Shown here in pieces: positions 4,412 through 27,299 of a DNA stretch of 57,403 bases. Position 1 is the stretch's first letter; every line of letters begins with the position of its first letter. The translations under genes were made by a program, and so were the position numbers. Location of the stretch: the NCBI GenBank assembly GCA_025359845.1, contig JANYDT010000056.1:1-57403 (forward strand), read 5' to 3'. The stretch comes from Acidimicrobiia bacterium (lineage in GTDB: Bacteria > Actinomycetota > Acidimicrobiia > Acidimicrobiales > JANYDT01). The notes beneath the pieces were generated by a model. It did no database searches. It was not told the origin of the DNA and worked only from the letters and a program-made list of their open reading frames with translations.

Positions 4412-4870
4412 GCAGTCCACATCGGTTGCTGACCCTGGAGCGCGTGGCCCTGTTTCGCCACCTCGATTTCTTCAGCGGCGCGCCGGGTCACGTGTTAGCG
4501 GCGGTGGCGGTTGAGGCTGACGAAGCGGTGTTCGCGCCCAACGAGATCATCATGCGTCGAGGAGACCGGCGACTCCCTCTTCGTGGTGGTGCAAGGACGC
4601 ATACGCATCGAGATCGGCGGCCATCACGTCGAGGACATGGGCCCGGGGTCGGTCGTCGGCGAGTTGGCCGTGCTCGTGAGCGAGCCCCGCTCGGCCACGA
4701 CTACGGCCATCGATGAATGCCTGTTGCTGCGACTGCGGAAGGCCGTGTTCGACGAGCTCCTCCTCGACTACCCCGAGGTCGCTCGGGGCGTCATCACCGC
4801 CTTGGTCCGCCGGTTCCGGGAACGCGATTTCGGGGTGGGATCGGACTCTTCCGACACAGGTACGTTATGA
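4399..4870 (+). pseudogene. Stand-alone cyclic-nucleotide-binding (Crp-like) protein with a frameshift near 4560
   Basis: The N half (MATLSS..LTLERVALFRHLDFFS..EIIMRRG) and C half (GDSLFVVVQG..GPGSVVGELAVL..EPRSAT) lie in different frames. The break at cga-g-gag-acc is consistent with loss of a GA dinucleotide. Confidence 0.75.
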
Positions 4871-12656: not shown

Positions 12657-12763
12657 GAACGACCTCCGTCTACGGCCGACAGGTGCCGACATTGCATTAT
12701 TGCTACTGGCATGACCGCAGTCAGAGCGCTGAGGAACGGTCCAGATGATACGCGAACGACGCG

Positions 12764-15700
12764 CTAGCGCGCCAGTGCCGGGCCACAGAAACGCAAAACC
12801 GCGGCAACCCCATCCCCGTGTTCCCAGTCGCGCCCTCGGGCTTGGGCTTCCGCCTGCGACGTCACGTCGATTGAGGCCGTAGCTCGGGTCAAAACCGCCG
12901 CGATCTCGGCGTCGAGCGCCGCCGCCCTGGGCGAACCCACCTCCAAGCGACAGCGGTCGGCGACCCCCATCAGCTCCAATGCCATCTCGCCCATGTTGAG
13001 CGTGGCAGCCAGCACGGCGACGTCCTCGAAGAGAAACGCCAACGCCCATTTGTCGCCGTACTGCTGGAACGCGGTCGCGGCGGCGGCGTAGTGGCGTCGT
13101 GCCGCGTCGTGGTCGCCGAGTCCGCGCTGCGCATTGCCGAGGTTGTGGTGGCTGAGGGCGACCATCCAGCTGTCACCAACTTCGAGGTTCAGGCGCATGG
13201 CTTCTTCGAAGGCGTCGCGCGCCTCTGCTGGCCTTCCCTGGAGGACCGCAATCATGCCGAGACCGGTATGCGACACCGCGATCGCCCATTGGTCTCCTGT
13301 TTCGGATCGCAGGGCGAGGGCTCGCTCGTGGAAGTCGCGGGCGGCCTCGAGGTCGCCCTCGTACTCTGAGACCACGCCGAGGTTCGACAGCATCGCGCCC
13401 ATCCCGGCCCTGTCACCCAGCCGTTGTCGCACCTCGAGGCTGGCGAGGTACTTCGCCCGGGCGCCGTCGTTGTCGCCGCGCTGCGCGGCCACGGTTCCGG
13501 CCAGGTGCAGGACCTGGCCGTTTCCGGCGTCGTCGTGCAATTCGCCGAAGAGTTCGGCAGCACGATCGAGCCGTTCCTCCGCTTCGCCGAATTGGCCCTG
13601 TTTCCGGGCGACCTCGGCCAGCGCGGCCTCGCACCACGCCTCCGCGTGCCGATCGCCCGCGCTGCAGGCCAACGTCAGCGCCTCGGCTTCGACCTCGCGC
13701 GCCCGAGCCCACGATCCGACCAGCTCAAGAACCTTCCCGAGCTTCAGCAGTATGTCGGAGCGCCGGGCCGGCTCGACGATCCCGGCGAGTCGCTCGAAAT
13801 AGTCGATGGCGGCATCGTTCGCGTAGCGGGCCTGGGCCGCGACGCCCGCCCGTTCGAGGTACGTGATCTTCTTCTCGCGGTCACCGCTGTTCCACCAGTG
13901 ATGGGCCACAAGGTCAAGCGAAGCCGCCACGGTCTCGGGCCCGTGGCGCTCCAATTCAGCGGCGGCCCGCCCGTGCAGGAGTTCGCGCAACGCAAACGGA
14001 AGGCTCTCATACGCCACCTCCCGGGTGACAACGTGACGAAAGAGCCACGATGAGTCGGCTTCCTGATCGATAGCCACGAGATCGGCGGCGCGACCGGCGG
14101 CGAGGTGGCGTTCGACATCGTCGTTCGAACCGAGGTCGGGGTACACCCGCTGGACCATCGACGAAACGAACGTTCGGCCGAGCACGCTCGCCACCTTGAG
14201 GGTGCGCCGAGGGTCCTCGACCAGGGTGTCGATGCGGCTCAGCACCAGGCTGTGGAGGCTGCCGGGCAGGTCGAGGTCTCGAAGCTGCCTCGGATCGGCC
14301 GGCTCGATGCTACGGCCGTGGATGTAGTTGAGGAGCTCCTCCAGGTAGAACGGGTTGCCTTCGGATCGCTCCACGACCAGAGTGAGCAACTCCGGCGCGG
14401 CGACAACATCGTCACCGAAAAGTTGCCGCAACTTTGTCATGGCCACGGCTTTGGCCGCCCCCGGTCCGAGTTCATCGAGGACGAACTCGGCGAACTGGGG
14501 CAGGCCCTCGAGTCCGAGGCCGCCCCCGGGCTGATCGCCCGGACGGTAGGCCAAGACGAACAGCACGGGAAACGACGATGTCGCCCGCACGAGGACCTCG
14601 AGGAGGTCGCGCGACAGCGGGTCGATCCAATGGCAGTCCTCCAGCACGATCGCCAGCGGCTCCTGGCTCGCGGCCGCCTGTAACGCGTCGACCAGGAGCG
14701 CCTCGAGAGACGTCTTGCGCAGCTTCGCATCGAACTGACGCGTCACATCGCTATCGGGCAGGTCGAGGCCGAGCACGGGGCCGAGGAGCGCCGCGCGCCG
14801 CACCTGGCCCCGTCCGACGGCGGCCAGCGAGCGCCGCACGGCTCGACGTTGATTCGCCTCCGTCGCGTCGTCGTCGACCCCGAGCAGCGTGCGCCACACT
14901 TCGCGCCAGATCGCATAGCTGATACTTCTTCCGATCGTCGGGGCCTCGCCGAAGGCGACAATTATCCCATCAGACCGAAGTGACCGGACGACCTCGGCCA
15001 CGAGGCGCGACTTCCCCCGGCCCGCTTCCGCAGCGATGGCCACGACGCGTCCTTCGCCGCCGCGTACCTCGACCCCGGCTTGCCCGATCGCCTCCATCTC
15101 GGCGTCGCGTCCCACCATTGGCAGCGGATAGCGGATCTCGCGCTCCCGCGACTGGACAGCGACGCCATCGAGCCCCCACACGTCCGCCGGCTCGACCTTA
15201 CCCTTCACCTCGAGCGGGCCGACGTGGTTCCACCGGTAACGATCGCCGGCGGCCCTGCGCATTTCGTTGCTTACGAAGATGGCGCCGAATGGCGCTTTCG
15301 ACATCAGGCGCGCCGAAAGGTTCACCGCGTCGCCGAGACAGGTGAACGTGCGCCGCCGGCTGTGGCCGTACGTCCCGCTCAGCAATCGTCCGCTGGTAAT
15401 TCCGATCTGGAGATCACGGGCGGCCGTGTCGGCCGCCGCGGCCCGCAGTTCCAGCGCCGCGCCGGCCGCCCGTGCGGCGTCGTCGCCGTGTGCGTTCGGC
15501 GAACCGAAGACGGCATAGAGATAGGCGCCCTTGTCGCCAAGCGTGAGTTGGAGCAGGTTGCCGCCGTAGCGCGAGAACACCTCTTGGGCTCGGCGCACGA
15601 ACGTGTCGAGCTTGGCCGGCGCCTCTGGATCATCGTCGTAGTCGATGCCTCCGAAGCGCACGAACATTGGGTACGCGAAGCGGAGCTCCGCGAGAAATTC

Positions 15701-16474
15701 ACCACGGCCGGTCTGCAGGCGCTCGTAGACGGCGGGAAGCACCCACGGACGCACGAGTTCCTCTGCGAGAAGCGGGTCGGGCCGCGTCGGGGTCTCGGCC
15801 ACTTCGACGAGAATGGCGTCCATCACCCCGACGAACGAGCCGTTCGCGATGTCCGAACCGTCGACCGCCTCTCCGCTCGGTAATCGGCGAAGCTCGGCCA
15901 AATGCACGCGTCCTTCCGTGGCCTTGACGGCCGACGCGGTGAGGATGACCTCCCCTTTCTGGGCCATCTGTTCCGCCTCCGCCAGCGCGTCGACGATGCC
16001 GCCGGCGAGCACGTCGATCAGCTGGATGTCTGGGTCGCCCACGACGAAACGACGGGCCGGTCCCACGGCGATCGCCACTTTGATCGCAAGAATTATCTCG
16101 CGGCCCGCGGGTGTCACCACCCGGCCGGCCGATGCCATCGTGTGCTGGATGGCGAGCCCCGCGGCGGCCGCCCGTGTGCCATCGTCGCCTTCGAGCCAGC
16201 ACGTGATCGCGTCGCCGCTGAAGTAGAGGACGTGTCCGCCGTAACGATCCAAGTCGGAGATGACCGCCTGGAAGAGGCGGTTCAAGTTGGCCGTGAGTTC
16301 CTCCGCGCCGCGCTGCGGTCCGAGCTCGCGGGCGAGCGTCTCCGTCAGCGGGGTAAAGCCGGAGATGTCGGCGAAGAGGCCCGCACCCTGGACGCGGTCG
16401 GCCAACACCGATCCCGTGGCGAGCGCCCACCGGCGATCCGCCGGTAGGAACGCGAGGGGACTCTCAGCGACCAT
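12764..16474 (-). CDS. STAND-class adenylate/guanylate cyclase: two class III cyclase domains + AAA ATPase + TPR repeats
   Basis: LFADISGFT..FSGDA; GDKG..FG.P..IGITSG..LGDAVNLSARLM; Walker A AEAGRGKSRL; Walker B LEDCHWID; SEGNPFYLEE; TPR-like NLG/LG repeats. Start taken at MVAESP; the upstream ORF extension is antisense to the esterase. Confidence 0.9.
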   Translation of the reverse strand: MVAESPLAFLPADRRWALATGSVLADRVQGAGLFADISGFTPLTETLARELGPQRGAEELTANLNRLFQAVISDLDRYGGHVLYFSGDAITCWLEGDDGTRAAAAGLAIQHTMASAGRVVTPAGREIILAIKVAIAVGPARRFVVGDPDIQLIDVLAGGIVDALAEAEQMAQKGEVILTASAVKATEGRVHLAELRRLPSGEAVDGSDIANGSFVGVMDAILVEVAETPTRPDPLLAEELVRPWVLPAVYERLQTGRGEFLAELRFAYPMFVRFGGIDYDDDPEAPAKLDTFVRRAQEVFSRYGGNLLQLTLGDKGAYLYAVFGSPNAHGDDAARAAGAALELRAAAADTAARDLQIGITSGRLLSGTYGHSRRRTFTCLGDAVNLSARLMSKAPFGAIFVSNEMRRAAGDRYRWNHVGPLEVKGKVEPADVWGLDGVAVQSREREIRYPLPMVGRDAEMEAIGQAGVEVRGGEGRVVAIAAEAGRGKSRLVAEVVRSLRSDGIIVAFGEAPTIGRSISYAIWREVWRTLLGVDDDATEANQRRAVRRSLAAVGRGQVRRAALLGPVLGLDLPDSDVTRQFDAKLRKTSLEALLVDALQAAASQEPLAIVLEDCHWIDPLSRDLLEVLVRATSSFPVLFVLAYRPGDQPGGGLGLEGLPQFAEFVLDELGPGAAKAVAMTKLRQLFGDDVVAAPELLTLVVERSEGNPFYLEELLNYIHGRSIEPADPRQLRDLDLPGSLHSLVLSRIDTLVEDPRRTLKVASVLGRTFVSSMVQRVYPDLGSNDDVERHLAAGRAADLVAIDQEADSSWLFRHVVTREVAYESLPFALRELLHGRAAAELERHGPETVAASLDLVAHHWWNSGDREKKITYLERAGVAAQARYANDAAIDYFERLAGIVEPARRSDILLKLGKVLELVGSWARAREVEAEALTLACSAGDRHAEAWCEAALAEVARKQGQFGEAEERLDRAAELFGELHDDAGNGQVLHLAGTVAAQRGDNDGARAKYLASLEVRQRLGDRAGMGAMLSNLGVVSEYEGDLEAARDFHERALALRSETGDQWAIAVSHTGLGMIAVLQGRPAEARDAFEEAMRLNLEVGDSWMVALSHHNLGNAQRGLGDHDAARRHYAAAATAFQQYGDKWALAFLFEDVAVLAATLNMGEMALELMGVADRCRLEVGSPRAAALDAEIAAVLTRATASIDVTSQAEAQARGRDWEHGDGVAAVLRFCGPALAR

Positions 16475-16651
16475 CGCCGCGCCGGTACCGAATGTGACCT
16501 TATCGTCGATTGCGCCCTCCTTCTCGTAGGCGTCCCACGGTACCAACGCCACGGCCGCTCTCCTTTCGTGGAGCCGACTTGGGACGTCGACGGGTTGAAC
16601 TTTGGCCCGTGGGAACGCTAGACAAGTGCGTTCACTTCTGGAGGTTTGTGT

Positions 16652-17614
16652 ATGGCAGTTGATTTCGCAACGAAGGCAGTCCTTGATCAAATGGTTAGCG
16701 CCGGGGGCAAGGCGCTCCACGAGAGCACGCCCGAAGAAGCTCGGGCCCTCGGCAAGGCGTTCGCGGCGATGGCCGGTCCTGCCCCAACAATGGCTCGAGC
16801 CGAAGACCACGAGGTCGCCGTCGCCGGTGGCGTGGTACCCGTACGCGTCCTCGTCCCCCTCCAGGGTGCCCGGGGTGTCATCGTCTATCTTCACGGCGGA
16901 GGCTGGGTCATCGGCGCCATCGACGAATTCGACACGATGGCCCGCAAGCTCGCCGAGCGCACCTCCTGCGCGGTTGTCGTCGTCGGCTACCGACTCGCAC
17001 CCGAGCACCGCTACCCAGTAGCCGTCGACGACAGCTACGCCGCCCTCGAGTGGACCGCGGCCCACCTCAAAGAAATTACCGGCCGCGACGATGTCGCGCT
17101 GATCGTGGCCGGTGACAGCGCCGGCGGCAATCTGGCGGCGATCATGGCCCTGCGGGCCCGAGACCGCAACGGTCCCAAGATCGCCCTCCAAGTGCTCATC
17201 TACCCGGTCACCGACGCCAACCTTGATAGGCCGTCGTGCACCGACCCCGAGAACCAGCTCATCCTCACCCGCGACGCCATGGTTTGGTTCTGGGACCACT
17301 ACGCCCCGGACGCTTCCCGGCGCGCGGAGCCCGATGCGTCGCCGCTGCGCGCCGCCAGCCTCGCCGGGCTCCCCCCGGCGGTGGTCCTCACGGCCGAATA
17401 CGACGTCCTTCGCGATGAAGGCGAGGCCTATGCGGAACGCCTCAAGGAGGCGGGCGTGCCCGTCGACTTCAAGCGCCACGCAGGACAGATGCACGGCTTC
17501 TTCACGTTCCTCCTCCTGCCCGGCAGCGAACGCGGCTTTCAACACGTCGTCAAGGCGGTGCGGGCCTGCACGATCCGCCATTCGCAGAGCCAGCCAGCGC
17601 AACGCGCCAACTGA
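16652..17614 (+). CDS. Alpha/beta hydrolase (HSL-family esterase)
   Basis: HGGGW, YRLAPEH.YP, GDSAGG, EYDVLRDEG, HGF motifs; GGAGG upstream. Confidence 0.93.
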   Translation: MAVDFATKAVLDQMVSAGGKALHESTPEEARALGKAFAAMAGPAPTMARAEDHEVAVAGGVVPVRVLVPLQGARGVIVYLHGGGWVIGAIDEFDTMARKLAERTSCAVVVVGYRLAPEHRYPVAVDDSYAALEWTAAHLKEITGRDDVALIVAGDSAGGNLAAIMALRARDRNGPKIALQVLIYPVTDANLDRPSCTDPENQLILTRDAMVWFWDHYAPDASRRAEPDASPLRAASLAGLPPAVVLTAEYDVLRDEGEAYAERLKEAGVPVDFKRHAGQMHGFFTFLLLPGSERGFQHVVKAVRACTIRHSQSQPAQRAN

Positions 17615-17675
17615 TCGTATGTATCAACTCTAAGCTCGACCAAAGAAAAGTTCGTCCAACGAAAAGGACCCGGAT

Positions 17676-19313
17676 ATGGAATCATTCACCGCGACACAGG
17701 ATCTCGACGCCGTCGTAATTGGCTCCGGGTTCGCCGGCCTGTACATGAATTACCGGCTGCGTGAGCAGCTCGGCATGGACACGCAAGTCTACGAAGCAGG
17801 CGATAACGTCGGTGGCACCTGGTACTGGAACCGCTACCCCGGGGCCCGTTGCGACTCCGAGTCCTACATGTACTGCTTTTCGTTCGACAAGCAACTCATG
17901 CAGGATTGGGAGTGGAGCGGCAAATATCCCGAGCAGCCAGAGATTCTCCGCTACCTCAATCATGTGGCCGATCGCTTCGACCTGCGCCGCAACACCCAGT
18001 TCAACACCAGGGTGATCGCAGCGCACTTCAACGAGGCCACTCACCGCTGGGAGATCGAGACCGACAAGGGCGACAAAGTCACGGCGAAGTTCCTGATCAC
18101 CGGCATCGGCTGCCTCTCCTCCGGGCAGATCCCAAACATCGCCGGTCGCGATACCTTCCAGGGCGAGTCGTATCACACTGGCGCCTGGCCTCACGGCGGC
18201 GTGAACTTCGCCGGCAAGCGCGTGGGAGTCATCGGTACCGGGTCGAGCGGTGTGCAGTCGATTCCCGTGATCGCAAAGCAGGCCGACCATCTTTATGTCT
18301 TCCAGCGCACGCCTCAGTTCACCATTCCGGCCCGCCATCACACTGTCGACAAGGCGTTCCTCGACGGGGTCAAGAAGGACTACGACGCAATCTATGAAAA
18401 GGCCCGCTGGTCGAACGGCGGCTTGCCGATCGATCCCATCGAGCGATCCGCCCTCGCCGTCAGTGACGAGGAGCGCCTCGCGGTTTATGAGGCGGCATGG
18501 AAAGAGGGCGGCTTCAAGTTCTTGTTCGGTTCCTTCTTCGATATTGGCCTTGATCGTCGCGCCAACGACACCGCCTCCGAATTCATTCGGTCGAAGATTC
18601 GCGAGATCGTGAAGGACCCCGACGTAGCCGAGAAGCTTGTACCCGTCGACCATCCCTTTACCTCGAAGCGCGCCCTAATCGATACGGACTACTTCGATAC
18701 CTACAACCGCGACAACGTCACGCTCGTCGACATTCGCCATGCACCCATACAGGAGATCACGCCGAAGGGCATCCGCACCGAGGACGGCGAGTACGAACTC
18801 GACATCATCGTCTTTGCCACGGGGTTCGACGCAATGACAGGCACCTTCAACCGGATCGACATCCAGGGGCGCGACGGTGAGAAGTTGAAGGACAAATGGG
18901 CGGCCGGCCCGCTTACTTATCTTGGGGTGACCACCGCCGGTTTCCCAAACTTTTTCATGATCACCGGTCCGGGCTCACCCTCGGTTCTCAGCAATATGCC
19001 GGTCTCGATCGAACAGCACGTCGAGTGGATCTCCGGTGCGATTGCGCATATGAATGAGCAAGGGCTTGTAGTTATAGAGGCCGATGAGAGCGCCGAGAAG
19101 GAGTGGGTGGCTCATGTCAACGAGGTGGCCGAACAAACGATGTTCATGCTCGCCGATTCCTGGTATCTGGGGGCCAATATCCCCAACAAGCCGCGCGTCT
19201 TCATGCCCTACCCTGGCGGTGTCGGTGCCTACCGCCAGAAGTGCAACGAAGTAACCGAAGCGGGCTATACCGGCTTCACCATCAGCAAGGGTGAGCCCGC
19301 CGTCGCCCAGTAA
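17676..19313 (+). CDS. Type I Baeyer-Villiger monooxygenase
   Basis: GSGFAG, GGTWYWNRYPGARCD, fingerprint FQGESYHTGAWP, GTGSSG, ATGFDA. Confidence 0.95.
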   Translation: MESFTATQDLDAVVIGSGFAGLYMNYRLREQLGMDTQVYEAGDNVGGTWYWNRYPGARCDSESYMYCFSFDKQLMQDWEWSGKYPEQPEILRYLNHVADRFDLRRNTQFNTRVIAAHFNEATHRWEIETDKGDKVTAKFLITGIGCLSSGQIPNIAGRDTFQGESYHTGAWPHGGVNFAGKRVGVIGTGSSGVQSIPVIAKQADHLYVFQRTPQFTIPARHHTVDKAFLDGVKKDYDAIYEKARWSNGGLPIDPIERSALAVSDEERLAVYEAAWKEGGFKFLFGSFFDIGLDRRANDTASEFIRSKIREIVKDPDVAEKLVPVDHPFTSKRALIDTDYFDTYNRDNVTLVDIRHAPIQEITPKGIRTEDGEYELDIIVFATGFDAMTGTFNRIDIQGRDGEKLKDKWAAGPLTYLGVTTAGFPNFFMITGPGSPSVLSNMPVSIEQHVEWISGAIAHMNEQGLVVIEADESAEKEWVAHVNEVAEQTMFMLADSWYLGANIPNKPRVFMPYPGGVGAYRQKCNEVTEAGYTGFTISKGEPAVAQ

Positions 19314-19338
19314 GAGCCATGGTCAGCCCGCCGCGCCT

Positions 19339-19434
19339 TAGTGCCTCAACCACAAACCCACGCCTCGTCCGGCAGCTTCGCTGCCAGGCGAAATGTGGCG
19401 TGGGACTAGGCGTAGGATTGTGGTCACGGCACTA
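19339..19434. mobile_element. 96-bp TA-flanked palindromic MITE/REP-like element; may also act as a bidirectional terminator between convergent genes
   Basis: Ends TAGTGCC-tca-ACCACAA and TTGTGGT-cac-GGCACTA; nested stems cccacgcc/ggcgtggg and ggcagc-ttc-gctgcc. Confidence 0.55.
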
Positions 19435-21094
19435 GATGGACGACGCGGCGGTCGACCAGAGCGCCCGCCTTGGCATTTGCGATCCCCAGGTCACCCACGA
19501 AGGCCTCCACATCGGCCATGGAACTCCCCGACGCGAACGTTCGCACCGCCTCGGCCACACCGGTGACCTCAGCGAGAAACCCCTCGTGGGCGCCCATGGC
19601 CGGGTCTTCGACAGTACCTTCCACGAACACGACGACGAATCGGGCTCGCCTCCCATCGTGCTTGCGCCTCAGCACCCTGCCCATTCGCTGCACCATCTGA
19701 CGACGCGACCGACTCGCCGCCAAGATGATGGCCAGGTCGGCGGCCGGCACGTCGACGCCTTCGTCGAGTACTTGCGGGGCAACAACCGCGTGCAGCGTTC
19801 CTGTCGCGAATTTGGCGAGGATGACCTGGCGGTCTTGGGATGACTGCCCAGAGTGCATCGCCTCGGCCGTGATTTCTTGGTCGCGCAAAGCGGACGCAGC
19901 GAGGGAAGCACCCGAGATGGTTTGCGTGAAGACGATGACGCGTTGCGCCCCTTCCAGCGCCGGCGCCAGCCGCGCGAGCGCGTCAAGCTTGGCCGGGGTC
20001 TCGGCCATCAACCGACGCCGGTTCGCCATGGCGGACAGGTACGTGCGGGCCAAAGCCGCATCGATGCCATCGCCGCGTCGGGCGAGCCGCGCCAGGCCTT
20101 CCACGAAGGCCGCGACGGGCGCCGCCGGAACCGCGCCCTTCGCGATCAGCTGCGCCCTGGCGCTCGCCATGAGGTGTGTCAGCTCATCGTAGGCCAACCG
20201 CTCAACAGTGTTGAAGCTCACCCCCACCAGCCCGACGGAGAACCGCGCCACCACCCTGTCGGCGATCGCTACCGCGTAACCCATGCGATAGCAGGTACCC
20301 CCGAAGTACGGATCGAGCCAAGCCAGATGGCCGTCGTCGGCCCGGGCGTACGTCGCGCTGAGACCGAGCCGGCGGGCGAATCCCACCTCCAAAGCCACAC
20401 GGTTGCCCTCCGAACCGTAACGATGGCACTCATCGGCCACCAGCAGTCCGCCGGGCCTTCGGGGGCGGAGATCGGCGTCGCGCGCCGAGTTCACGATGGC
20501 CACGAGAACGTCGTGGCCACCGAGCCCTTCGCGTTGGCCGTCACCCAAGAGGCCCACACTGACGCCCGAAGGGAGACACCGCGCCAGGACGGAGTTCCAC
20601 TGCATCATGAGATCCCTCGTCGGCACGATCACGCACGTCTGGCCGCCGGCCGCAAGTTCGGCCACGGTGGCGGCCACGCCGACCATCGTCTTGCCCGTGC
20701 CCGTTACCGCCTCGACGACGCCGCGCCGGTCTTGGGCCATCCACGCCGCGAGAGCCGCGGTCTGCCAGCGATACAGGACTGGCATCGAGGCCTTCGAGAG
20801 CGCAGGGATCACCGCTCCCGACCCCTTCATGCCGTTCAATGTTGAGCTACGGGTAGGCGGATCCCGCCGCGCCGCCTGCATAGCCACCGGCCACCATCGC
20901 GGCGGGTCATCGTCGTCGTGGCGGAACCGGCGGGGGTAGGCGGCCAACACCCGAGCGACGTCGGCGGCCGTGATCGATACGCGCCCGAGGGTTCGCAGTC
21001 CGTCGCGCACCTCAACCGTCGTGCGCCCCGGAGCCGATTCCAGCACCGCGGCAATTTCCTCCGCCTCGCCGTGTCCATTCATTGGCGCCGTCAC
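19424..21094 (-). CDS. SF2 DEAD/DEAH-box helicase (XPB/Rad25/ResIII-like) with N-terminal winged-helix domain
   Basis: LYRWQ..AL; AVTGTGKT; IVPT..L..QW; ADECH; LGLSAT; VLDEGVDVP; QRMGRVLR. Confidence 0.92.
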   Translation of the reverse strand: MTAPMNGHGEAEEIAAVLESAPGRTTVEVRDGLRTLGRVSITAADVARVLAAYPRRFRHDDDDPPRWWPVAMQAARRDPPTRSSTLNGMKGSGAVIPALSKASMPVLYRWQTAALAAWMAQDRRGVVEAVTGTGKTMVGVAATVAELAAGGQTCVIVPTRDLMMQWNSVLARCLPSGVSVGLLGDGQREGLGGHDVLVAIVNSARDADLRPRRPGGLLVADECHRYGSEGNRVALEVGFARRLGLSATYARADDGHLAWLDPYFGGTCYRMGYAVAIADRVVARFSVGLVGVSFNTVERLAYDELTHLMASARAQLIAKGAVPAAPVAAFVEGLARLARRGDGIDAALARTYLSAMANRRRLMAETPAKLDALARLAPALEGAQRVIVFTQTISGASLAASALRDQEITAEAMHSGQSSQDRQVILAKFATGTLHAVVAPQVLDEGVDVPAADLAIILAASRSRRQMVQRMGRVLRRKHDGRRARFVVVFVEGTVEDPAMGAHEGFLAEVTGVAEAVRTFASGSSMADVEAFVGDLGIANAKAGALVDRRVVHLVP

Positions 21095-21128
21095 TCAGAC
21101 GCCTGCGGGGGAGGAACCGGACAGTGCG

Positions 21129-22421
21129 TCACCCGCCGTCCGAGTCGTCACTTACTCCTTCGAGCGCGACGTCTTCGGTGAAGTCGATTAAAATCTCTGA
21201 CTTCGTGATCTCGGGTTGGTACGACGAGTCGAGGCGGCGCAGGTCCCAGGCGTTGATCCACGCTCTGACGTATTGGCGCATTCGGTTGGACGGGAGCCGC
21301 TCCAGGCCCTCGACATCGGGCGGCTCCCAACCGTAGGCGGCCCCGTGGATGGCCTTCAACTTCGCGTAAGTCCGGTCGAGTTCGTCGCGATCGGGTGGCT
21401 GCAGTCGGAGCTGACCCCGCTCAATGACACGCATGCCGGTTTCTGCCGCTCCGGCCAATAGATCGTGTTCGGCTGTGCCTTTCAAACGCAGCTTCTTCGG
21501 GATCAGTTCAACATCGTTCTTTCCCACCAACACTTGGGCCTCGAAGTCTTCGACCGTAGTGAGCACCGCGCACAATGGGGCCGACGGATCATGGCGGTCG
21601 CCGCGGACCCACCGCGCCACCTCGGCATACGACTTGGCCCGCTGCAACATCGAATACCGACCGATGAGTTCCACCTCGTCGATCAGGATGACCCAGCCCG
21701 CGTAGCCGGCGGCGCCGATGAGTCGCGACACGAACCGGAACCGCTGCACGGCGAGATCGCGCTCCTTCACTGAAGCCAATCGGTACGTGTTAGCGGCACC
21801 GGCCTCTCTCAGCCGTCGCCGGAGATCGGCGACCGGCAGCGGATCACCGGCCCAGAAGCGCACGATCCGATCGGCGAACTCGGCGTCTCCTCGGGCGTAC
21901 TCGTGCAAGAACAGGCTCGCCGCGAAACGGCTGTCGACGGGGACATCGTCGTTGTGCAGCCAACGGTACAGCGCCGCGTATTGGTCTGACTCGGTCCGTA
22001 GCCCGGTGGCGATCTCGTCGATGGCGGAGCCAGGACGCCCCGGGACTCTGGCTTCCTCGATCGCCGCCCGAAAGAGCTTCGCCGGGTCGTGCAGCGGAGT
22101 CTCTTTCGAGATGACCACCTTCGACACCACGAAGCCGGCGTCGAGGGCCAGGTGCGCCAAGTATTGAAGCACATGGCTTTTGCCCGACCCGAAACCGCCG
22201 CCGATCAACATCCCGGGGCCGTCGTTGGCTCCCTCGCCAAGGGCCTGGCCAGCGGACACCGCTCGCACCGAATCGAGCAGTTGGGTGAACCGGTCTTCCA
22301 CCGCCGTTTGGAGAGAGCCGAGTGCGGCCACGGCATCACGGTTGGGCACGCCCGCCCGGAGCGCCTCGAGGGCCCTGCGCCCGGCCAGCTGACCGGTCGA
22401 CGACTCACTCGAAGAACTCAT
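21129..22421 (-). CDS. DUF2791/BrxD-like P-loop ATPase (intact Walker motifs)
   Basis: RRALEALRAGVP, GGGFGSGKSH.L, GFVVSKVVIS.ETPL, GWVILIDEVELI. ATGA overlap with the upstream gene at 22418-22421. Confidence 0.8.
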   Translation of the reverse strand: MSSSSESSTGQLAGRRALEALRAGVPNRDAVAALGSLQTAVEDRFTQLLDSVRAVSAGQALGEGANDGPGMLIGGGFGSGKSHVLQYLAHLALDAGFVVSKVVISKETPLHDPAKLFRAAIEEARVPGRPGSAIDEIATGLRTESDQYAALYRWLHNDDVPVDSRFAASLFLHEYARGDAEFADRIVRFWAGDPLPVADLRRRLREAGAANTYRLASVKERDLAVQRFRFVSRLIGAAGYAGWVILIDEVELIGRYSMLQRAKSYAEVARWVRGDRHDPSAPLCAVLTTVEDFEAQVLVGKNDVELIPKKLRLKGTAEHDLLAGAAETGMRVIERGQLRLQPPDRDELDRTYAKLKAIHGAAYGWEPPDVEGLERLPSNRMRQYVRAWINAWDLRRLDSSYQPEITKSEILIDFTEDVALEGVSDDSDGG

Positions 22422-23374
22422 GCTGCCCCCAATCGGACCAAGGACGAATACGGATTGTCGCGCCTCACGTCGCGCACCTCGTCGAAGATACGCAGCTTCA
22501 GGGCTTGGTAGGCATCGACGCCGCGATTCGGGTCCGTGACGAACTCCGGAGCGGTGATCACGACCACGCAGCAGTGGGTCAATTCGTCGGTGTTGTCGAC
22601 CAACTGGCGGAGCAACTCGTAGGCGTCGAGCAGCGCTGACTTTGTGTAATAGAGGCCGGCGCGCTCCTCGGCCCGGGGCCGCTTCGCGAACCCGAGACGG
22701 CGAATGTCGAGTTCGAGCAACAGTCCCGGTTTGCCATTTACCGAGAGCCAATGGGCGAGTGAGAACAGAAGCTGGCGGGCATTGTTGCGCCCCACCCGGC
22801 GAAAGATCATGGCGGAGTGCAGTAGAGACATTTGGCGCAGATCGCCGCGCAACCAATCCAGTACGGCGCCGTGTTCGGCGTCGGTCACCTGGCCCGTCGC
22901 CAGGTGCGCCTGGCAGAGCCTCAGCATGGCGATGCGGAACTCCTGCACCATCTCGTAGTCGCGGTAAATGCGCTGCTGCAGATATCGGTTCACGTCTCGG
23001 CTCAGCTCGGCCGCGTCGACGCCGTAGCGAGCGGCCACGCCGCCGACCGTGATGTCATCGCTCCCATCGGGGACCGGATGGGCCGCGGCCGCCCACGCGG
23101 CCCGAACCGTGGTCTTGGCCAGAGCGTCCCAGTCGATCTGGGCGGCCACCGCAAAGAACACTTGCTCCATCATGTGTACCCGGGTCAGGGCGGCGTCGAC
23201 TCGGGCCACGACGTAGCCGTCGGCCACCGCGTGTTGGGCGAGCTCGGCGCTGAATGCGGCGGCGTGATCGTCATCGGTCGCCACGGCGAACTTGACGGCC
23301 CCGCCACCGCCGGCCACGAACGTGGACAGGTACTCGCCCTCGAGGAACGCGGAGTAGTCGTGGCCGGTGATCAT
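22418..23374 (-). CDS. DUF2791/BrxD-like protein with degenerate Walker A (probable inactive ATPase)
   Basis: EYLSTFVAGGGGAVKFAV without GK[ST]; GYVVA.VDA; LDWLRG; NARQLL.SL..WL...G..GLLL.LD; DAYELLRQLVD; YQALKLRI. Confidence 0.7.
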   Translation of the reverse strand: MITGHDYSAFLEGEYLSTFVAGGGGAVKFAVATDDDHAAAFSAELAQHAVADGYVVARVDAALTRVHMMEQVFFAVAAQIDWDALAKTTVRAAWAAAAHPVPDGSDDITVGGVAARYGVDAAELSRDVNRYLQQRIYRDYEMVQEFRIAMLRLCQAHLATGQVTDAEHGAVLDWLRGDLRQMSLLHSAMIFRRVGRNNARQLLFSLAHWLSVNGKPGLLLELDIRRLGFAKRPRAEERAGLYYTKSALLDAYELLRQLVDNTDELTHCCVVVITAPEFVTDPNRGVDAYQALKLRIFDEVRDVRRDNPYSSLVRLGAA

Positions 23375-24156
23375 TGCCCGTCCCGACTGAGGCTGATGCC
23401 CGCGTAAATCTTCTCTTGACCCGACCGGCTCACGGTCATCAGCACACCCGTTCCGCGGGTGAGCGCGCTGGCCGGCAGCTCTAGCTTTCGCCCGTCCTTG
23501 GTCGTCACGACCCCGCTCTGGTCGAGCAAGTAGAGGTCGCGGGCGAACTCTTGCTTTGTGTAGTCGCGCCCCGATCCTGGTAGCACGGTCAGCACGGTGT
23601 ACACGTCGACGAGCTTCACGATCGATGCCTCGCGAGCGCCCGCTTTGGCGACGACCAACTCGTAGGCAAGGGCGAGCGACTCCAGGAAAGCCTCCACCTT
23701 GAACTTCGGGGGACGGGCCTGCAACGCTTTCAAAGTGCGTACCAGCACCGACGGTCGGGTTCGGCGATCTTTTCTTTTATCGATCACGACCGCGGTGTCG
23801 CCGGGCGAGATTTGCACGATGGCGGGAAAGCTGAGGATGCGGTCGTCGGACTCAAACGCATGAACTCCCTCCTCGGCCGCGAGCGCCAGTACCTCCTTGG
23901 CGTAACCGCCGCCCGCGAAGTGCGCTTGTTCGTCGAATGACCATCCATCGCGGACGTCACGGACGGTGACGCCGGCCTGGTCGCATAGCCGAATTGCGGA
24001 GTCCATCGCGGCCCGCAATTCACGCATTTGGCCGAGCGAGGCGGCGGCCTTGATCTTCTTCGTCTCCTTGAGTGCGGAGGCGATTGCTCGGACGGCAGCA
24101 TCGGCCTCGCGCTCGAGCGTGGCCAGCGCGCCTTCGAGGCTGTCGTTCGATGCCAT
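23371..24156 (-). CDS. Hypothetical protein (N-terminal helical/coiled region, possible C-terminal winged helix)
   Basis: Plausible coding sequence with ATGA overlap into the next gene; C-terminal VKLVDVYTVLTVLPG..DYTKQEFARDLYLLD. Confidence 0.75.
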   Translation of the reverse strand: MASNDSLEGALATLEREADAAVRAIASALKETKKIKAAASLGQMRELRAAMDSAIRLCDQAGVTVRDVRDGWSFDEQAHFAGGGYAKEVLALAAEEGVHAFESDDRILSFPAIVQISPGDTAVVIDKRKDRRTRPSVLVRTLKALQARPPKFKVEAFLESLALAYELVVAKAGAREASIVKLVDVYTVLTVLPGSGRDYTKQEFARDLYLLDQSGVVTTKDGRKLELPASALTRGTGVLMTVSRSGQEKIYAGISLSRDGQ

Positions 24157-24204
24157 GGGCTTCTCCGGGATCGGTAGGTTGGGTTCGGGGCGGGTTCGGG
24201 GAAA

Positions 24205-25926
24205 TTAGAAGAGCGTGGCTGCATTCATCGGGACCAGCTCGACGGTAGCGCCGTCGATATCGGGACGGAAACTGACCACGAGAGTGTCGCCGGTGAGGGC
24301 ACCTACAGCGAGCGCGATCGGGCGTACCGAACCCCTGGTCGCCAGTAGGCCATCGTAGGACAACGCCACAGGTCCGTACCGCGTCGCGAACGTGCGGCGA
24401 CCCCCTTCGAGCATACCGAGCGACTCGACCAATGCTTGGGGCACAGCCCCGCCCGAACCGGCCAGGGTCAAATGATCCACCTCGATACGCAGTGACCGCA
24501 CTCCGCCGGGCCCCGCAGGGTTGAATGCCTCTTCGTAGGGGACTCCGCCCCACTCCGCCAACTCCCAATTGTCGGGCCCGACCCGAACGAACCGGGCGTC
24601 GCGCCGTAGCGCCGCTTCGTCATCTCTCGGTCTGATGTTGGTCGCCGTTGGGGCCCTGGAAGGAGGCGCGCCGGGCCACTCCCGGAGTTCCTCGGTGGTC
24701 ATCGTGTGCCCCGCGGCCGACAGCGCTCGCGCCGCGACATCGACAGGTGAGCCGGTCATGAGCACCACGAGATCATCGACGACTCGCACCGGCTGTTGGG
24801 CCAACCACGCGTCGACATGATCACCGACCAGGCAGAGCGACTGAAAGTCTTTGCGGACGTGACTGGCGAGGCGCACGCCGTCATCCTCGCTGAGCACCCG
24901 AGCGGTCTCCAAAACTAACTCTGTCGGATGTACGGCGATCCAACCCGGGTGCTCGGTCACGGGCCGGTACGGGCCGGCCCACCAGAGCAGCAGGAGCGAC
25001 CGGGTATCGGTCGTCGACGGCAGTTCCAGGCTCTCGAGCAGCAGGTCCGCGGCCGCTACCGGTGCGGCGACGCCGAGACCCTCCTTCAGGCAATCGACGA
25101 TGGCGCGCAGGAGCCGGTCCTCACCGGACGCGGCCACTGCGGATCGCACCCGTTCGGTTGCCCGGTCTCGGATTTGGCGCACTCGCTGGTTGCCGACATC
25201 CAAAACCCGTGCGACCGAGGCTCCGGTAGGCGCACCCCCCAGTTGGAGGTCGAGACGCTCGAAGACGACTCGATCACGAGAGTCTCCGGTGGCGGCCAGA
25301 GCCCGGTCGAGCACCGATACGACTCGGTCCGCAGGGCTGTCGCCGTTGTCGCCGCGCGATGCGCTCAGGCGCGCCGCCGCCGCTCGGATCGCTGACGGGT
25401 GCTGCCTCTTGGCCAGCTGTGTAAGCGCGTTGCGCAGCGCCGTCGAACCGGACTCGCGCTCGTAAGCGAGCAACGCCGCGAGATCGTTGCTCGGCGTTGT
25501 CGTCCTCTCGTTGGTATCGCGGTCAGACTGAATCACTGCGGCGAGCGCGCACTCCAGCAAGGCGACCAAGGATTTGGGGCCGACGTTCATAATCTCGCTG
25601 ATCTCGACCAGCGTGCGCCCGCCAAGCACCGCCCAGGTACTGGCGCCGTCTCGTTCGAGGGCGGCCACGAGACGGACCGGACAGGGGCCGGCAGCGGGCC
25701 CGCCGGGTGCGTTCACGAGCGCGGGAATCACGTCGCGCAAGCGGGACCCGGCCAGCGCGGTCAGCGTCCCGGGCCCGATCCCGTCGACGATCGCCGCTTG
25801 AAGCACTGCGAGTCCGTCGGTCGCAAGGGGCAGCGGTAGAGCTTCGAAATCGGCTGGTAAAAGCGCGGTCAGTCCGCCGGGCACGGCCAGCAACGTAGCG
25901 ATCTGGAATCGCGTCGCCAGCGGCAA
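24205..25926 (-). CDS. Multi-HTH protein with RNAP alpha-CTD-like, sigma-70 region 4-like and HARE-HTH/delta-like segments
   Basis: ALERDG.STWA.L...T..EI.EI.NVGPKSL (alpha-CTD-like); DRVVFERL..APTGASVARVLDVGNQRVRQIRDRA (sigma4-like); ALSAAGHTMTTEEL..ALRRDARFVRVGPDNWELAEWG (HARE-like). Start codon uncertain. Confidence 0.65.
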   Translation of the reverse strand: MPLATRFQIATLLAVPGGLTALLPADFEALPLPLATDGLAVLQAAIVDGIGPGTLTALAGSRLRDVIPALVNAPGGPAAGPCPVRLVAALERDGASTWAVLGGRTLVEISEIMNVGPKSLVALLECALAAVIQSDRDTNERTTTPSNDLAALLAYERESGSTALRNALTQLAKRQHPSAIRAAAARLSASRGDNGDSPADRVVSVLDRALAATGDSRDRVVFERLDLQLGGAPTGASVARVLDVGNQRVRQIRDRATERVRSAVAASGEDRLLRAIVDCLKEGLGVAAPVAAADLLLESLELPSTTDTRSLLLLWWAGPYRPVTEHPGWIAVHPTELVLETARVLSEDDGVRLASHVRKDFQSLCLVGDHVDAWLAQQPVRVVDDLVVLMTGSPVDVAARALSAAGHTMTTEELREWPGAPPSRAPTATNIRPRDDEAALRRDARFVRVGPDNWELAEWGGVPYEEAFNPAGPGGVRSLRIEVDHLTLAGSGGAVPQALVESLGMLEGGRRTFATRYGPVALSYDGLLATRGSVRPIALAVGALTGDTLVVSFRPDIDGATVELVPMNAATLF

Positions 25927-26105
25927 TGCCGCGCACGGACGGAAGAGATGCCCGAGGGCGGTGGTCTCGATGATGGTTCTTGCTGGCGGGTTTGACGAGA
26001 TGGATGGAGGTTACCCAGACGGCGGGGCGAAGGTGGTGACCGGATCGACGTTGATCGGCCGATCACTCCGAAGGACCCCGCGCGACGGCGCGCGAGAATC
26101 GCCGA

Positions 26106-26486
26106 ATGAGTTTTGGTCAGTCGGGGTCACCAGCCAGTGCGAAACAGGTGCAGTACCTTCTCTCGCTCGTCCAGAAAGCGGGTCACGCGAGCTTTCGTGA
26201 CGCCCGCGGAGCACTGGGGCTCACCCAGCGTCAGGCGTCAGGCAAGTTCGGCCGAGACGAGATATCAGCCCTGATTGATCGGCTGCTCGCCGGAGACGAC
26301 GGCCATGAACAGGGCGAAGGCGCCGGCCTGGCGGGTGCCTTCGCGGGCATGGGGGAGCGCATCTCGGCGGCCGACCGATTACAAAACGAGCGCGCCGAAT
26401 TGCTTCGGGGGATGCCCGCCGAGTTGCTGGCGGCCGAACTGGAGCGACGGGGTTGGCCGGTTGTGGCCCCGCCCGAGACGCCATGA
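26106..26486 (+). CDS. Small hypothetical protein
   Basis: PASAKQVQYLLSL...EISALIDRL small helical motif; divergent from the cassette. Confidence 0.65.
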   Translation: MSFGQSGSPASAKQVQYLLSLVQKAGHASFRDARGALGLTQRQASGKFGRDEISALIDRLLAGDDGHEQGEGAGLAGAFAGMGERISAADRLQNERAELLRGMPAELLAAELERRGWPVVAPPETP

Positions 26487-26543
26487 CAGAGGTATGGATC
26501 GAGCCAGGCGGCTTGGCTCGGGCCGCGGGCGCAGATGTCTGGA

Positions 26544-27299
26544 TCAGCGGAGGTAGTTGTATCCGCCGTCGACCATCAGCGTGGTACCGGTGACGTACGC
26601 GGCGTCCTCGCTGGCAAGGTATACCGCCGCGCGTCCGATATCGGTTTCGGGTTGGCCCATCCGCCCGAGTGGGATGGACGCGAGAATGGCGCGGTCGGAA
26701 TCGGGGGTCTCACCGAGAAAGAAGTCCCAGCCGGGGGTTTCGGCCAAAGGGCAGATGGCGTTGACGCGCACGCCGTGCTTGCCCCACTCCACCGCCGCGG
26801 CGCGGGTCAATACCCGGATGGCTTCTTTGACCATGGCGTATCCACCCATCGCCGGCTGGGGCATGATCGAACTGCCCGAGCCCATGTTGATGACGCACCC
26901 CTTGGTGGCCCGTAAGTGGTCGAAGCTTGATTGCATGAGTCGCAAGCTCCCCATCGGGCCGGATTGCCACATTGATTGCATATCGTCCTCCGTGATCTTG
27001 CGGACCGACTTATAGATAAGGGTCTGGGCGTTATTGACCAAGATGTCGAGTCGTCCAAAAGCCGCGAGGGTCTCGGCCACGGTGGCATCGACGTCGGCGC
27101 GCGATTCAACATCACACAGGAGCGCAATCGCTCGGCCTCCCCTTCCCTCGATCTCAGCCACGACCGCCTCACACTTCGCGAAGGTCCGACCGACGACGGC
27201 GACCTTGGCCCCTTCCCCGGCTAGAGCGAGGGCTACGCCTCGACCCACTCCCTGCCCCGCGCCGGTGACTATCGCAACTTTGCTCTCGAGTCGGTTCAC
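26544..27299 (-). CDS. Short-chain dehydrogenase/reductase
   Basis: TGAGQGVG, LVNNA, YAMVK, GVRVNAICP, TG..L.VDGG. Confidence 0.95.
   Translation of the reverse strand: MNRLESKVAIVTGAGQGVGRGVALALAGEGAKVAVVGRTFAKCEAVVAEIEGRGGRAIALLCDVESRADVDATVAETLAAFGRLDILVNNAQTLIYKSVRKITEDDMQSMWQSGPMGSLRLMQSSFDHLRATKGCVINMGSGSSIMPQPAMGGYAMVKEAIRVLTRAAAVEWGKHGVRVNAICPLAETPGWDFFLGETPDSDRAILASIPLGRMGQPETDIGRAAVYLASEDAAYVTGTTLMVDGGYNYLR

Follow-up and report, generated by a model that had tools for sequence, protein, structure and literature searches.

Can five adjacent genes encoding a pair of BrxD-like ATPases and a helicase constitute a unit of their own, and, if they can, what is inherited as the unit and what might it do? 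The question is raised by a 57,403-nt stretch of an Acidimicrobiia bacterium (assembly GCA_025359845.1, contig JANYDT010000056.1, positions 1-57,403 of the forward strand), which is referred to below as the window. Positions 19424-25926 of the window are occupied by five co-oriented open reading frames (ORFs), A to E, all located on the minus strand, as is seen from the ORF list and the translations. During a preliminary inspection performed with no database searches (hereafter the sequence-only reading), these genes were described as a self-contained cassette representing a candidate undescribed defence system. What is new in this locus, according to the analysis presented here, is the core protein family B and the three-gene B-C-D core, whereas the kind to which they belong, that of a BrxD/SngB-type ATPase plus a helicase, is known.

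The B-C-D triad and its clade-specific extensions

The cassette consists of gene A (24205-25926, 573 aa, TTG start), gene B (23371-24156, 261 aa), gene C (22418-23374, 318 aa), gene D (21129-22421, 430 aa as counted from the ATG at 22421) and gene E (19424-21094, 556 aa, GTG start). The B/C and C/D junctions are ATGA overlaps, at 23371-23374 and 22418-22421, respectively (the local sequence of the latter is gcATGAgt), and the A/B and D/E pairs are spaced by 48 and 34 nt, so that the compact arrangement with two overlaps and remaining gaps of less than 50 bp, reported in the sequence-only reading, was reproduced.

A scan for B of 185,579 species genomes yielded 19 loci, and B, C and D were found in the same order in 19/19 of them. 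Of 583 candidate stretches obtained in a metagenome scan, 423 were relatives, and the best 80 were kept for the tallies; together with six further genomic loci the tallies comprised 104 non-duplicate loci (L043 was dropped as a duplicate of L026). C adjoins B in 100 of the 104, the four misses being contig ends, and D was detected in 84, the other loci being truncated. A stop/start overlap of 4 or 1 nt was observed at 76 of 98 B/C junctions and at 70 of 84 C/D junctions. Dozens of independent contigs share this gene order, which places the arrangement far above chance. The flanking members of the cassette are less constant: among 38 loci readable on both sides, 25 carry both A and E, none carries A only, two carry E only (the near-identical metagenome loci L077 and L116), and 11 carry neither.

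For phylogenetic analysis of the concatenated C and D proteins, 105 loci were given, of which 69 had near-full C and D; upon removal of 4 identical rows, 65 rows remained. The loci with the XPB-type helicase (48 rows), those without a helicase (14 rows) and those with an SNF2-type helicase (2 rows) formed separate branches, each with a support of 99 in the Shimodaira-Hasegawa-like approximate likelihood ratio test (SH-aLRT). The row of L039 was tagged 'XPB' owing to a weak distant hit elsewhere in the locus; its adjacent helicase is of the SNF2 type, and its branch is long. In total, an SNF2 helicase is located downstream of D in L020, L039 and L130, with a small conserved protein ahead of it in L020 and L130. 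Across the XPB clade, B, C and D are 53-82% identical.

Since in other loci the triad is accompanied by an SNF2 helicase or lacks a helicase altogether, B-C-D is the unit of inheritance, and A and E represent, as judged from the sequences, additions specific to one clade of this core. The self-contained unit of the sequence-only reading therefore holds in part: the five genes are conserved in co-orientation and are independent of BREX genes elsewhere, yet the evolutionary unit is the smaller B-C-D triad. Likewise, the conservation of gene order, which that reading had left to be checked, extends to every species-genome locus for the triad and, for A plus E, to 25 of the 38 loci readable on both sides.

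The module is rare and patchy. B was found in 5/61 related genomes (4/27 within the family and 0/33 in other families of the order), in 10/401 genomes sampled across the phylum (this count includes the own genome of the window, G000, and the unpublished genome G147) and in 3/301 Gemmatimonadota, one of these matches being weak. Other copies of B belong, by their record titles, to Acidimicrobiia, Actinomycetes, Geodermatophilaceae, Gemmatimonas and a Chloroflexi metagenome-assembled genome.

Several individual loci deserve a description. In L077 and L116 the B-C-D-E part is kept, and a 29-residue remnant of A is seen upstream of B (~7886-7972), which suggests a recent loss of A. In L131 (G610:C7, ~80631-83350) a weak match to the B profile (E 2.2e-6) is followed by C-like and D-like frames of ~27% identity; due to this triad-like locus the B-C-D family is considered to reach beyond the analyzed loci. 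L041 (G310:C10) has an in-frame stop in D (~11423-12850) and one TGA within the match to B; either decay of this copy or errors in the contig may account for this. In L013 a Helicase_C_3 (PF13625) protein (14617-17052) and a distant XPB-like helicase (~17550-18668, 25% identity to E) lie directly downstream of the cassette; the two are taken to be an ordinary actinobacterial XPB-type pair, an accidental neighbour of the module.

The proteins of the cassette

Protein B has no Pfam, NCBIfam or PADLOC family, and this applies to the copy in the window (for which the PDC candidate models of PADLOC were included) and to 99 diverse homologues alike. Its relatives are numerous, amounting to 1049 in 90% clusters and to 667 clusters at 50% identity (E<=1e-3); all those in the 90% clusters are named 'hypothetical protein' by their source, and the nearest ESM Atlas clusters are also unnamed hypothetical proteins. 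The AlphaFold 2 (AF2) model of B, with a predicted local distance difference test (pLDDT) score of 95.3, shows residues 7-71 as a long helical hairpin and residues 101-130 as a small beta sheet, the C-terminal part being helical/beta, and a Foldseek search with this model against PDB and BFVD gave no match at E<=0.001. An acidic cluster, E88/D104/D126, followed by a basic residue, is invariant in 19 closer copies; among the 99 diverse homologues position 88 is acidic in 99, position 104 in 87 and position 126 in 69, and position 128 (K128) carries K or R in 76. A PD-(D/E)xK reading of B was tried on this ground and was kept as a lead only, the cluster being partly kept in the diverse homologues and no nuclease fold being matched; because of this partial conservation, a nuclease role of B is likewise a lead. 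The only fused form encountered is one longer protein (473 aa), devoid of Pfam domains, which is probably a start-codon artefact. By these comparisons, B is a specific marker of the module and a new protein family.

The sequence-only reading had distinguished a degenerate and an intact DUF2791/BrxD-like protein, and profile searches bear this out. D matched the Pfam family PF10923 BrxC_BrxD (DUF2791) with 72.2 bits, i.e., above the gathering cut-off of 22.2, and also matched the PADLOC profiles BrxD (E 5e-16) and, weakly, SngB (E 1.2e-7, 29.2 bits), the PADLOC library being one without cut-offs. At the same time, its score with the NCBIfam BrxD equivalog NF033438, 60.8 bits, is far under the cut-off of 350, and C does not match this model. 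The Walker A motif of D, GFGSGKS, occupies residues 76-82 (22176-22196, minus strand, from the translation); G76, F77, G78, G80, K81 and S82, as well as D248 and E249 of Walker B, are invariant in an alignment of 22 copies, from which the L041 copy with its in-frame stop was left out. Sequence search revealed no solved structural relative of D. On the basis of its motifs, D is an intact BrxD-like AAA+ ATPase, predicted to be active and putatively of the ORC/Cdc6 (origin recognition complex) type.

C matched PF10923 with 45.6 bits at profile positions 142-331 only (the C-terminal two thirds of the profile), and SngB with E 1.8e-4 and 18.7 bits in the same cut-off-free library. In an alignment of 25 copies, the Walker A/P-loop is replaced and Asp223 of Walker B is kept, the next Glu being lost; having lost both the P-loop and the catalytic Glu, C represents an inactive BrxD-like AAA+ paralogue. 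The hhalign comparison of C and D was co-linear and weak (E 0.0033, probability 9.8). Prediction of a complex of C, D(1-420) and B resulted in a score of 0.23 at a mark of 0.32, and speaks neither for nor against binding.

Protein A is the fastest-evolving component: its identity to the window copy is 28-55% in the very loci in which that of C and D amounts to 62-82%. The window copy gave a weak match to Sigma70_r4 (E 7.6e-4), and among its homologues this family was detected in 17/33, RNA_pol_A_CTD in 3/33 and HARE-HTH in 2/33; no PADLOC match, with the PDC candidate models included, and no NCBIfam family were obtained for A. A helix-turn-helix (HTH) of the sigma-70 region-4 type is located at residues 236-261, and residues ~390-460 probably form a HARE-HTH-like winged helix in the model. 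The nearest named ESM Atlas clusters to residues 385-573 contain HARE-HTH in 24% of members (score 0.75), which is to be treated as a lead only. The AF2 model of A (pLDDT 86.2) retrieved with Foldseek plant B3 DNA-binding pseudobarrels (E 0.05-0.1, probability 1.0), sigma factors and a model of RpoE (delta), these matches being weak and consistent. The B3 fold is that of the EcoRII N-terminal domain, and the C-terminal beta-rich domain of A appears to resemble B3/EcoRII-N pseudobarrels, the placement of this domain and of the HARE-like one along the chain being deduced from secondary structure and alignment. Taken together, these features predict a multi-domain DNA-binding protein. As to the sensor resembling RNA polymerase (RNAP) that the sequence-only reading had ascribed to A, the sigma region-4 HTH is solid at the family level, whereas the alpha C-terminal domain and HARE-HTH matches are marginal, and 'sensor' is an interpretation put upon them.

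Protein E carries the motifs TGTGKT, DECH, SAT and QRMGR, invariant in 9 copies; DECH (helicase motif II, residues 221-224) is encoded at 20423-20434 on the minus strand, according to the translation. Its best PADLOC profile is PbeA (E 8.1e-59, 197.8 bits), and as the alignment covers only PbeA positions 253-625 of 672, E is concluded to be devoid of the N-terminal HKD part of PbeA. The score with TIGR04095 (dnd restriction helicase) was 143.8 bits at a cut-off of 600. Among solved structures, those closest to E are archaeal XPBII (E 2.7e-31) and Archaeoglobus fulgidus XPB (E 3.3e-25), in accordance with the XPB-like helicase of the sequence-only reading. E was also considered as an XPB orthologue and was rejected as such, since it scored 81.2 bits with the XPB equivalog NF045503 at a cut-off of 610 and its likeness is limited to the helicase core; it also differs from the archaeal and bacterial XPB proteins, the best solved relatives of this core, in its N-terminal domain, its BrxD-like operon and its patchy distribution. 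The conserved N-terminal ~100 aa belong to no Pfam family in 9/9 copies; a HARE-HTH domain was tried for this region, and 0/9 copies matched any relevant Pfam family. No nuclease domain was recognized in E with Pfam, PADLOC or NCBIfam. By its motifs and profile matches, E is classified as an XPB/PbeA-like superfamily 2 (SF2) helicase or translocase.

Relation to described defence systems

In a PADLOC check of the cassette against PADLOC-DB 2.0 (a copy from 2023; 25 families were listed for E), no complete system was matched, and the statement of the sequence-only reading that no named system fits the locus was upheld. No description of the cassette or of the triad was found in the full texts of the literature, a search that did not cover supplementary neighbourhood tables. 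It could be argued that the module has already been named in a newer DefenseFinder or PADLOC release or in such a supplementary table, so that the mechanism would be the same and the cassette a new member of a described system. A family of this size (423 relatives in 583 metagenome stretches; 667 clusters at 50% identity) is unlikely to have escaped all large-scale screens, and the age of the PADLOC-DB copy points in the same direction. Nevertheless, A and B match no PADLOC model, candidate models included, B has no Pfam or NCBIfam family and only hypothetical proteins as relatives, and the literature search was negative; moreover, DUF499 and not BrxD is at the centre of the new BREX-related systems reported in a 2026 BREX survey (PMC12839542). 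We regard a prior naming of the module as unlikely.

A second possibility, that the cassette is what remains of a BREX or BREX-related locus, or a satellite of one, and works with PglZ, PglX, BrxC or DUF499 encoded elsewhere in the genome, had been pointed out in the sequence-only reading as one that would undo it. It is suggested by the membership of C and D in the BrxC_BrxD family. Besides, the own genome contains a DUF499 (BrxC-like) match inside a 1132-aa open frame (contig C40:46771-47742, locus L151), with methylase matches of the Eco57I type lying on C72, C155 and C148; it may carry a separate DUF499-centred BREX-related system. On the other hand, neither the cassette nor the own genome (93% complete) yielded PglZ (PF08665); among five other carrier genomes PglZ and DUF499 were each detected in one (both in G016), and G190, a single contig of 99% completeness, has neither. 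The cassette recurs with no adjoining BREX genes in all loci examined, and the score of D is far from that required of a BrxD equivalog. No PglX/BrxX methyltransferase and no DUF499-type BrxC were present among the five proteins, and no recognizable methylase, PglZ, TerB or nuclease domain was detected in them by the Pfam, PADLOC and NCBIfam scans, just as the sequence-only reading had noted. Given that no PADLOC system was matched and that PglZ was not found in the 93%-complete genome, the cassette was rejected as a BREX remnant, and either form of this second possibility is very improbable.

The closest parallel within BREX is offered by the type-2 (Pgl) system, in which BrxD, an ORC/Cdc6 AAA+ protein, forms a tight dyad with the helicase BrxHI and is proposed as its loader or activator (PMC12839542). 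The likeness consists in a stand-alone PF10923 ATPase, in the cassette putatively of the ORC/Cdc6 type, adjoining an SF2 helicase. Unlike type-2 BREX, the cassette is devoid of BrxC, PglX, PglZ and PglW, its ATPase is an active/inactive pair accompanied by the novel protein B, its helicase is XPB/PbeA-like (or SNF2) in contrast to the Ski2/Lhr-like BrxHI, and D is far under the BrxD equivalog cut-off (60.8 vs. 350 bits).

Shango is composed of the TerB protein SngA, the ATPase SngB and the helicase SngC. The cassette resembles this system in combining an accessory protein, a DUF2791-type ATPase and an SF2 helicase with no nuclease or methylase, and C and D give weak matches to SngB. It differs in having two ATPase paralogues instead of one and the extra DNA-binding protein A, and SngC is absent from the 25 families listed for E, the best of which is PbeA. 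No TerB match was obtained for the window copies of A and B, nor for the 99 B homologues with Pfam, and the only TerB fragment of the own genome is located on contig C103. Having no TerB protein, the cassette was ruled out as a member of Shango.

PbeA and the dnd restriction helicase TIGR04095 are the closest clade to the motor domain of E. PbeA of the PbeABCD system is described as an HKD endoDNase fused to an SF2 helicase (PMC10853773). In contrast to this system, E has no N-terminal HKD nuclease, and the cassette contains no CxC ATP-binding cassette (ABC) ATPase (PbeC), DndE (PbeD) or dnd genes; PADLOC revealed no PbeB, PbeC or PbeD match in A-D. The assignment to Pbe was rejected accordingly, only the PbeA helicase core being matched. 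Finally, in MANTIS/Gao_RL and other BREX-related systems centred on DUF499, DNA is loaded onto a partner enzyme by an AAA+ ATPase together with a small co-regulator, and an effector that contains a helicase comes next (bioRxiv 10.64898/2026.09.23.753747). It is this layout to which the proposed working of the cassette is likened; these systems possess a methyltransferase, a helicase-nuclease and a DUF499/BrxC-like ATPase, whereas the cassette has neither methylase nor nuclease.

Proposed function and genomic surroundings

What, then, could the module do? We infer that the cassette is a putative conflict module that targets DNA and whose ATPase pair would load or activate the helicase, with complex formation, helicase loading and an anti-phage or anti-mobile-element role all belonging to this inference; we consider it to be about as probable as its negation. 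According to this proposal, A would recognize a DNA feature; B, C and D might assemble on the DNA selected by A in an ATP-driven manner, similarly to loaders of the ORC/Cdc6 type; the assembly would load or switch on the SF2 motor E; and the motor could strip or remodel invading DNA or stall its replication or transcription. Neither a self-marking methylase nor a dedicated nuclease would be required by such a mechanism, unless B is the effector.

The proposal is favoured by the matches of C, D and E to parts of conflict systems (BrxD, SngB, PbeA, dnd restriction helicase), by the strict B-C-D linkage, the helicase swap, the patchy spread, the varied neighbourhoods and the invariant catalytic motifs of D and E, and by protein A, whose DNA-binding folds recur in restriction enzymes and in accessory subunits of RNAP, and which far outpaces C and D in its evolution. 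To characterize the neighbourhoods, 119 of 211 candidate flanking ORFs from 39 loci were scanned (up to 2 on either side of each locus; the crude gap heuristic placed a few of them off-centre). Their Pfam matches were spread over 101 families, each present in 3 ORFs at most, the neighbourhood differing almost locus by locus; most families were those of ordinary metabolism, and a few Fic (3), RES (2) and PRiA4 genes were present besides. The PADLOC matches included SoFic (3), PDC-S24 (3), PDC-S04 (3), MzaA (2) and mad3 (2), with no family in more than 3 ORFs; these figures are raw counts and speak neither for nor against an enrichment in defence islands, and some PADLOC models respond to ordinary genes as well (Lhr-like helicases, for example, are recorded under BrxHI/SngC).

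Several facts weigh against a defence function or limit what can be built on it. The flanks are mostly housekeeping or metabolic, and a minority of the 119 ORFs match PADLOC at E<=1e-5. A collection of 72,556 plasmids yielded neither B nor D, and one of 50,697 phage records yielded no B. The 53-82% identity of B, C and D is unusually high for defence genes. The metagenome loci are not independent samples, several of them being near-identical, and the paralogy of C and D is based on Pfam membership and the weak hhalign score. Furthermore, as no nuclease, toxin or modification enzyme was recognized, the effector and the discrimination of self from non-self are left unexplained, and helicase loading cannot be the whole story, since the helicase-less clade keeps the triad with no motor. 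Because a whole clade lacks the helicase, the triad must have an activity of its own, for which B is the only candidate.

The main rival of the conflict module is a non-immune one, maintaining DNA or transcription (repair, handling of stalled RNAP, remodelling of replication forks), in which the AAA+ pair and B would recruit an XPB or SNF2 translocase to lesions or stalled complexes, with A as a tether to DNA or RNAP. XPB and bacterial SNF2 motors of the RapA type act in transcription and repair, and the recognizable pieces of A (sigma region 4 in 17/33, alpha C-terminal domain in 3/33, HARE-HTH in 2/33) are of the RNAP-accessory type; the high conservation of B, C and D, the mostly metabolic or housekeeping flanks, the lack of matches in the plasmid and phage collections and the lack of a recognizable nuclease, toxin or methylase in the cassette also speak for it. 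However, a spread as sparse and patchy as 10/401 and 3/301 genomes, and 4/27 within the family, is unlike that of a function under general need, the neighbourhood changes in nearly every locus, every sequence relative detectable for C, D and the E motor belongs to a conflict system, and swapping of helicase types is typical of the modularity of defence. Considering these facts, we judge a maintenance role to be rather unlikely.

Returning to the conflict module, its broadest form would be an unrecognized family of self-contained immune modules, present in several phyla and built of an active/inactive pair of ORC/Cdc6-type AAA+ proteins and protein B of a new fold, possibly the effector, with interchangeable SF2 motors (XPB/PbeA-like, SNF2 or none) and, in the clade of the window, a diversifying DNA reader, A; such modules would interfere with foreign DNA by means other than methylation or a classical restriction nuclease. 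We put this form forward tentatively, as possible and, on the whole, doubtful. Few parts of BREX and Shango are as poorly understood as the BrxD-type ATPases, and here this kind of ATPase occurs apart from methylase, PglZ and nuclease in a compact form of three to five genes, which is frequent in soil and sediment Actinomycetota. If the module protects from phages, it would serve as a minimal system for the action of a BrxD-like AAA+ protein on helicase and DNA, and the defence catalogue would gain both an architecture and a protein family (B) that are new to it; should it give no protection, a BrxD-like ATPase plus a helicase alone would be no defence signature.

Toxin-type neighbours were noted at two loci: a Fic-domain gene after the SNF2-type module in L039 (G190, 4474-5670, minus strand) and a PIN-domain gene immediately before the triad in L024 (9288-9923, plus strand).

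In the window itself, the cassette is flanked by genes of a flavin-containing monooxygenase (FMO)-type protein, a short-chain dehydrogenase/reductase (SDR), a luciferase-like monooxygenase, ABC transporters and a cyclase-AAA-TPR protein, i.e., by metabolic and regulatory genes, in line with the unrelated metabolic surroundings reported in the sequence-only reading, and its guanine-cytosine (GC) content is about that of the surroundings. Comparison of 12.5 kb of DNA with 31 relatives gave flank matches scattered over other contigs, so that the insertion boundaries were not definable and no empty site was recovered. No transposase or integrase was revealed within the cassette by the scans of the five proteins with Pfam, PADLOC and NCBIfam, and no convincing direct or inverted repeats flank it, only short imperfect matches being present; a transposon or an integrative element was rejected as a reading of the cassette. 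No Rfam families were detected in 19000-26600, and the promoter/terminator scan of the cassette gave no promoter-like site and no more terminator-like sites than expected by chance.

At the 3' boundary of the cassette, between E and the convergent FMO gene, a palindromic dispersed repeat of ~100 nt (19339-19436) runs into the last codons and the stop of E. It has 28 matches across contigs of the own genome, belongs to no Rfam family and folds as a long hairpin (-59.9 kcal/mol, z -7.0). The repeat is probably a hairpin of the repetitive extragenic palindromic (REP) or miniature inverted-repeat transposable element (MITE) kind and possibly a bidirectional terminator; it lies outside the system proper.

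Upstream of gene A and divergent from it, a 126-aa ORF with no Pfam match is located at 26106-26486 (plus strand). Two very large ORFs are found on the minus strand on the other side of the cassette: one at 12764-17602, for a 1612-aa adenylate/guanylate cyclase-AAA_16-TPR (MalT-like) protein, and one at 7581-13049, for a 1822-aa protein with CBM96 and immunoglobulin (Ig)-like domains. As listed, these two overlap, and hence at least one of their starts is probably wrong.

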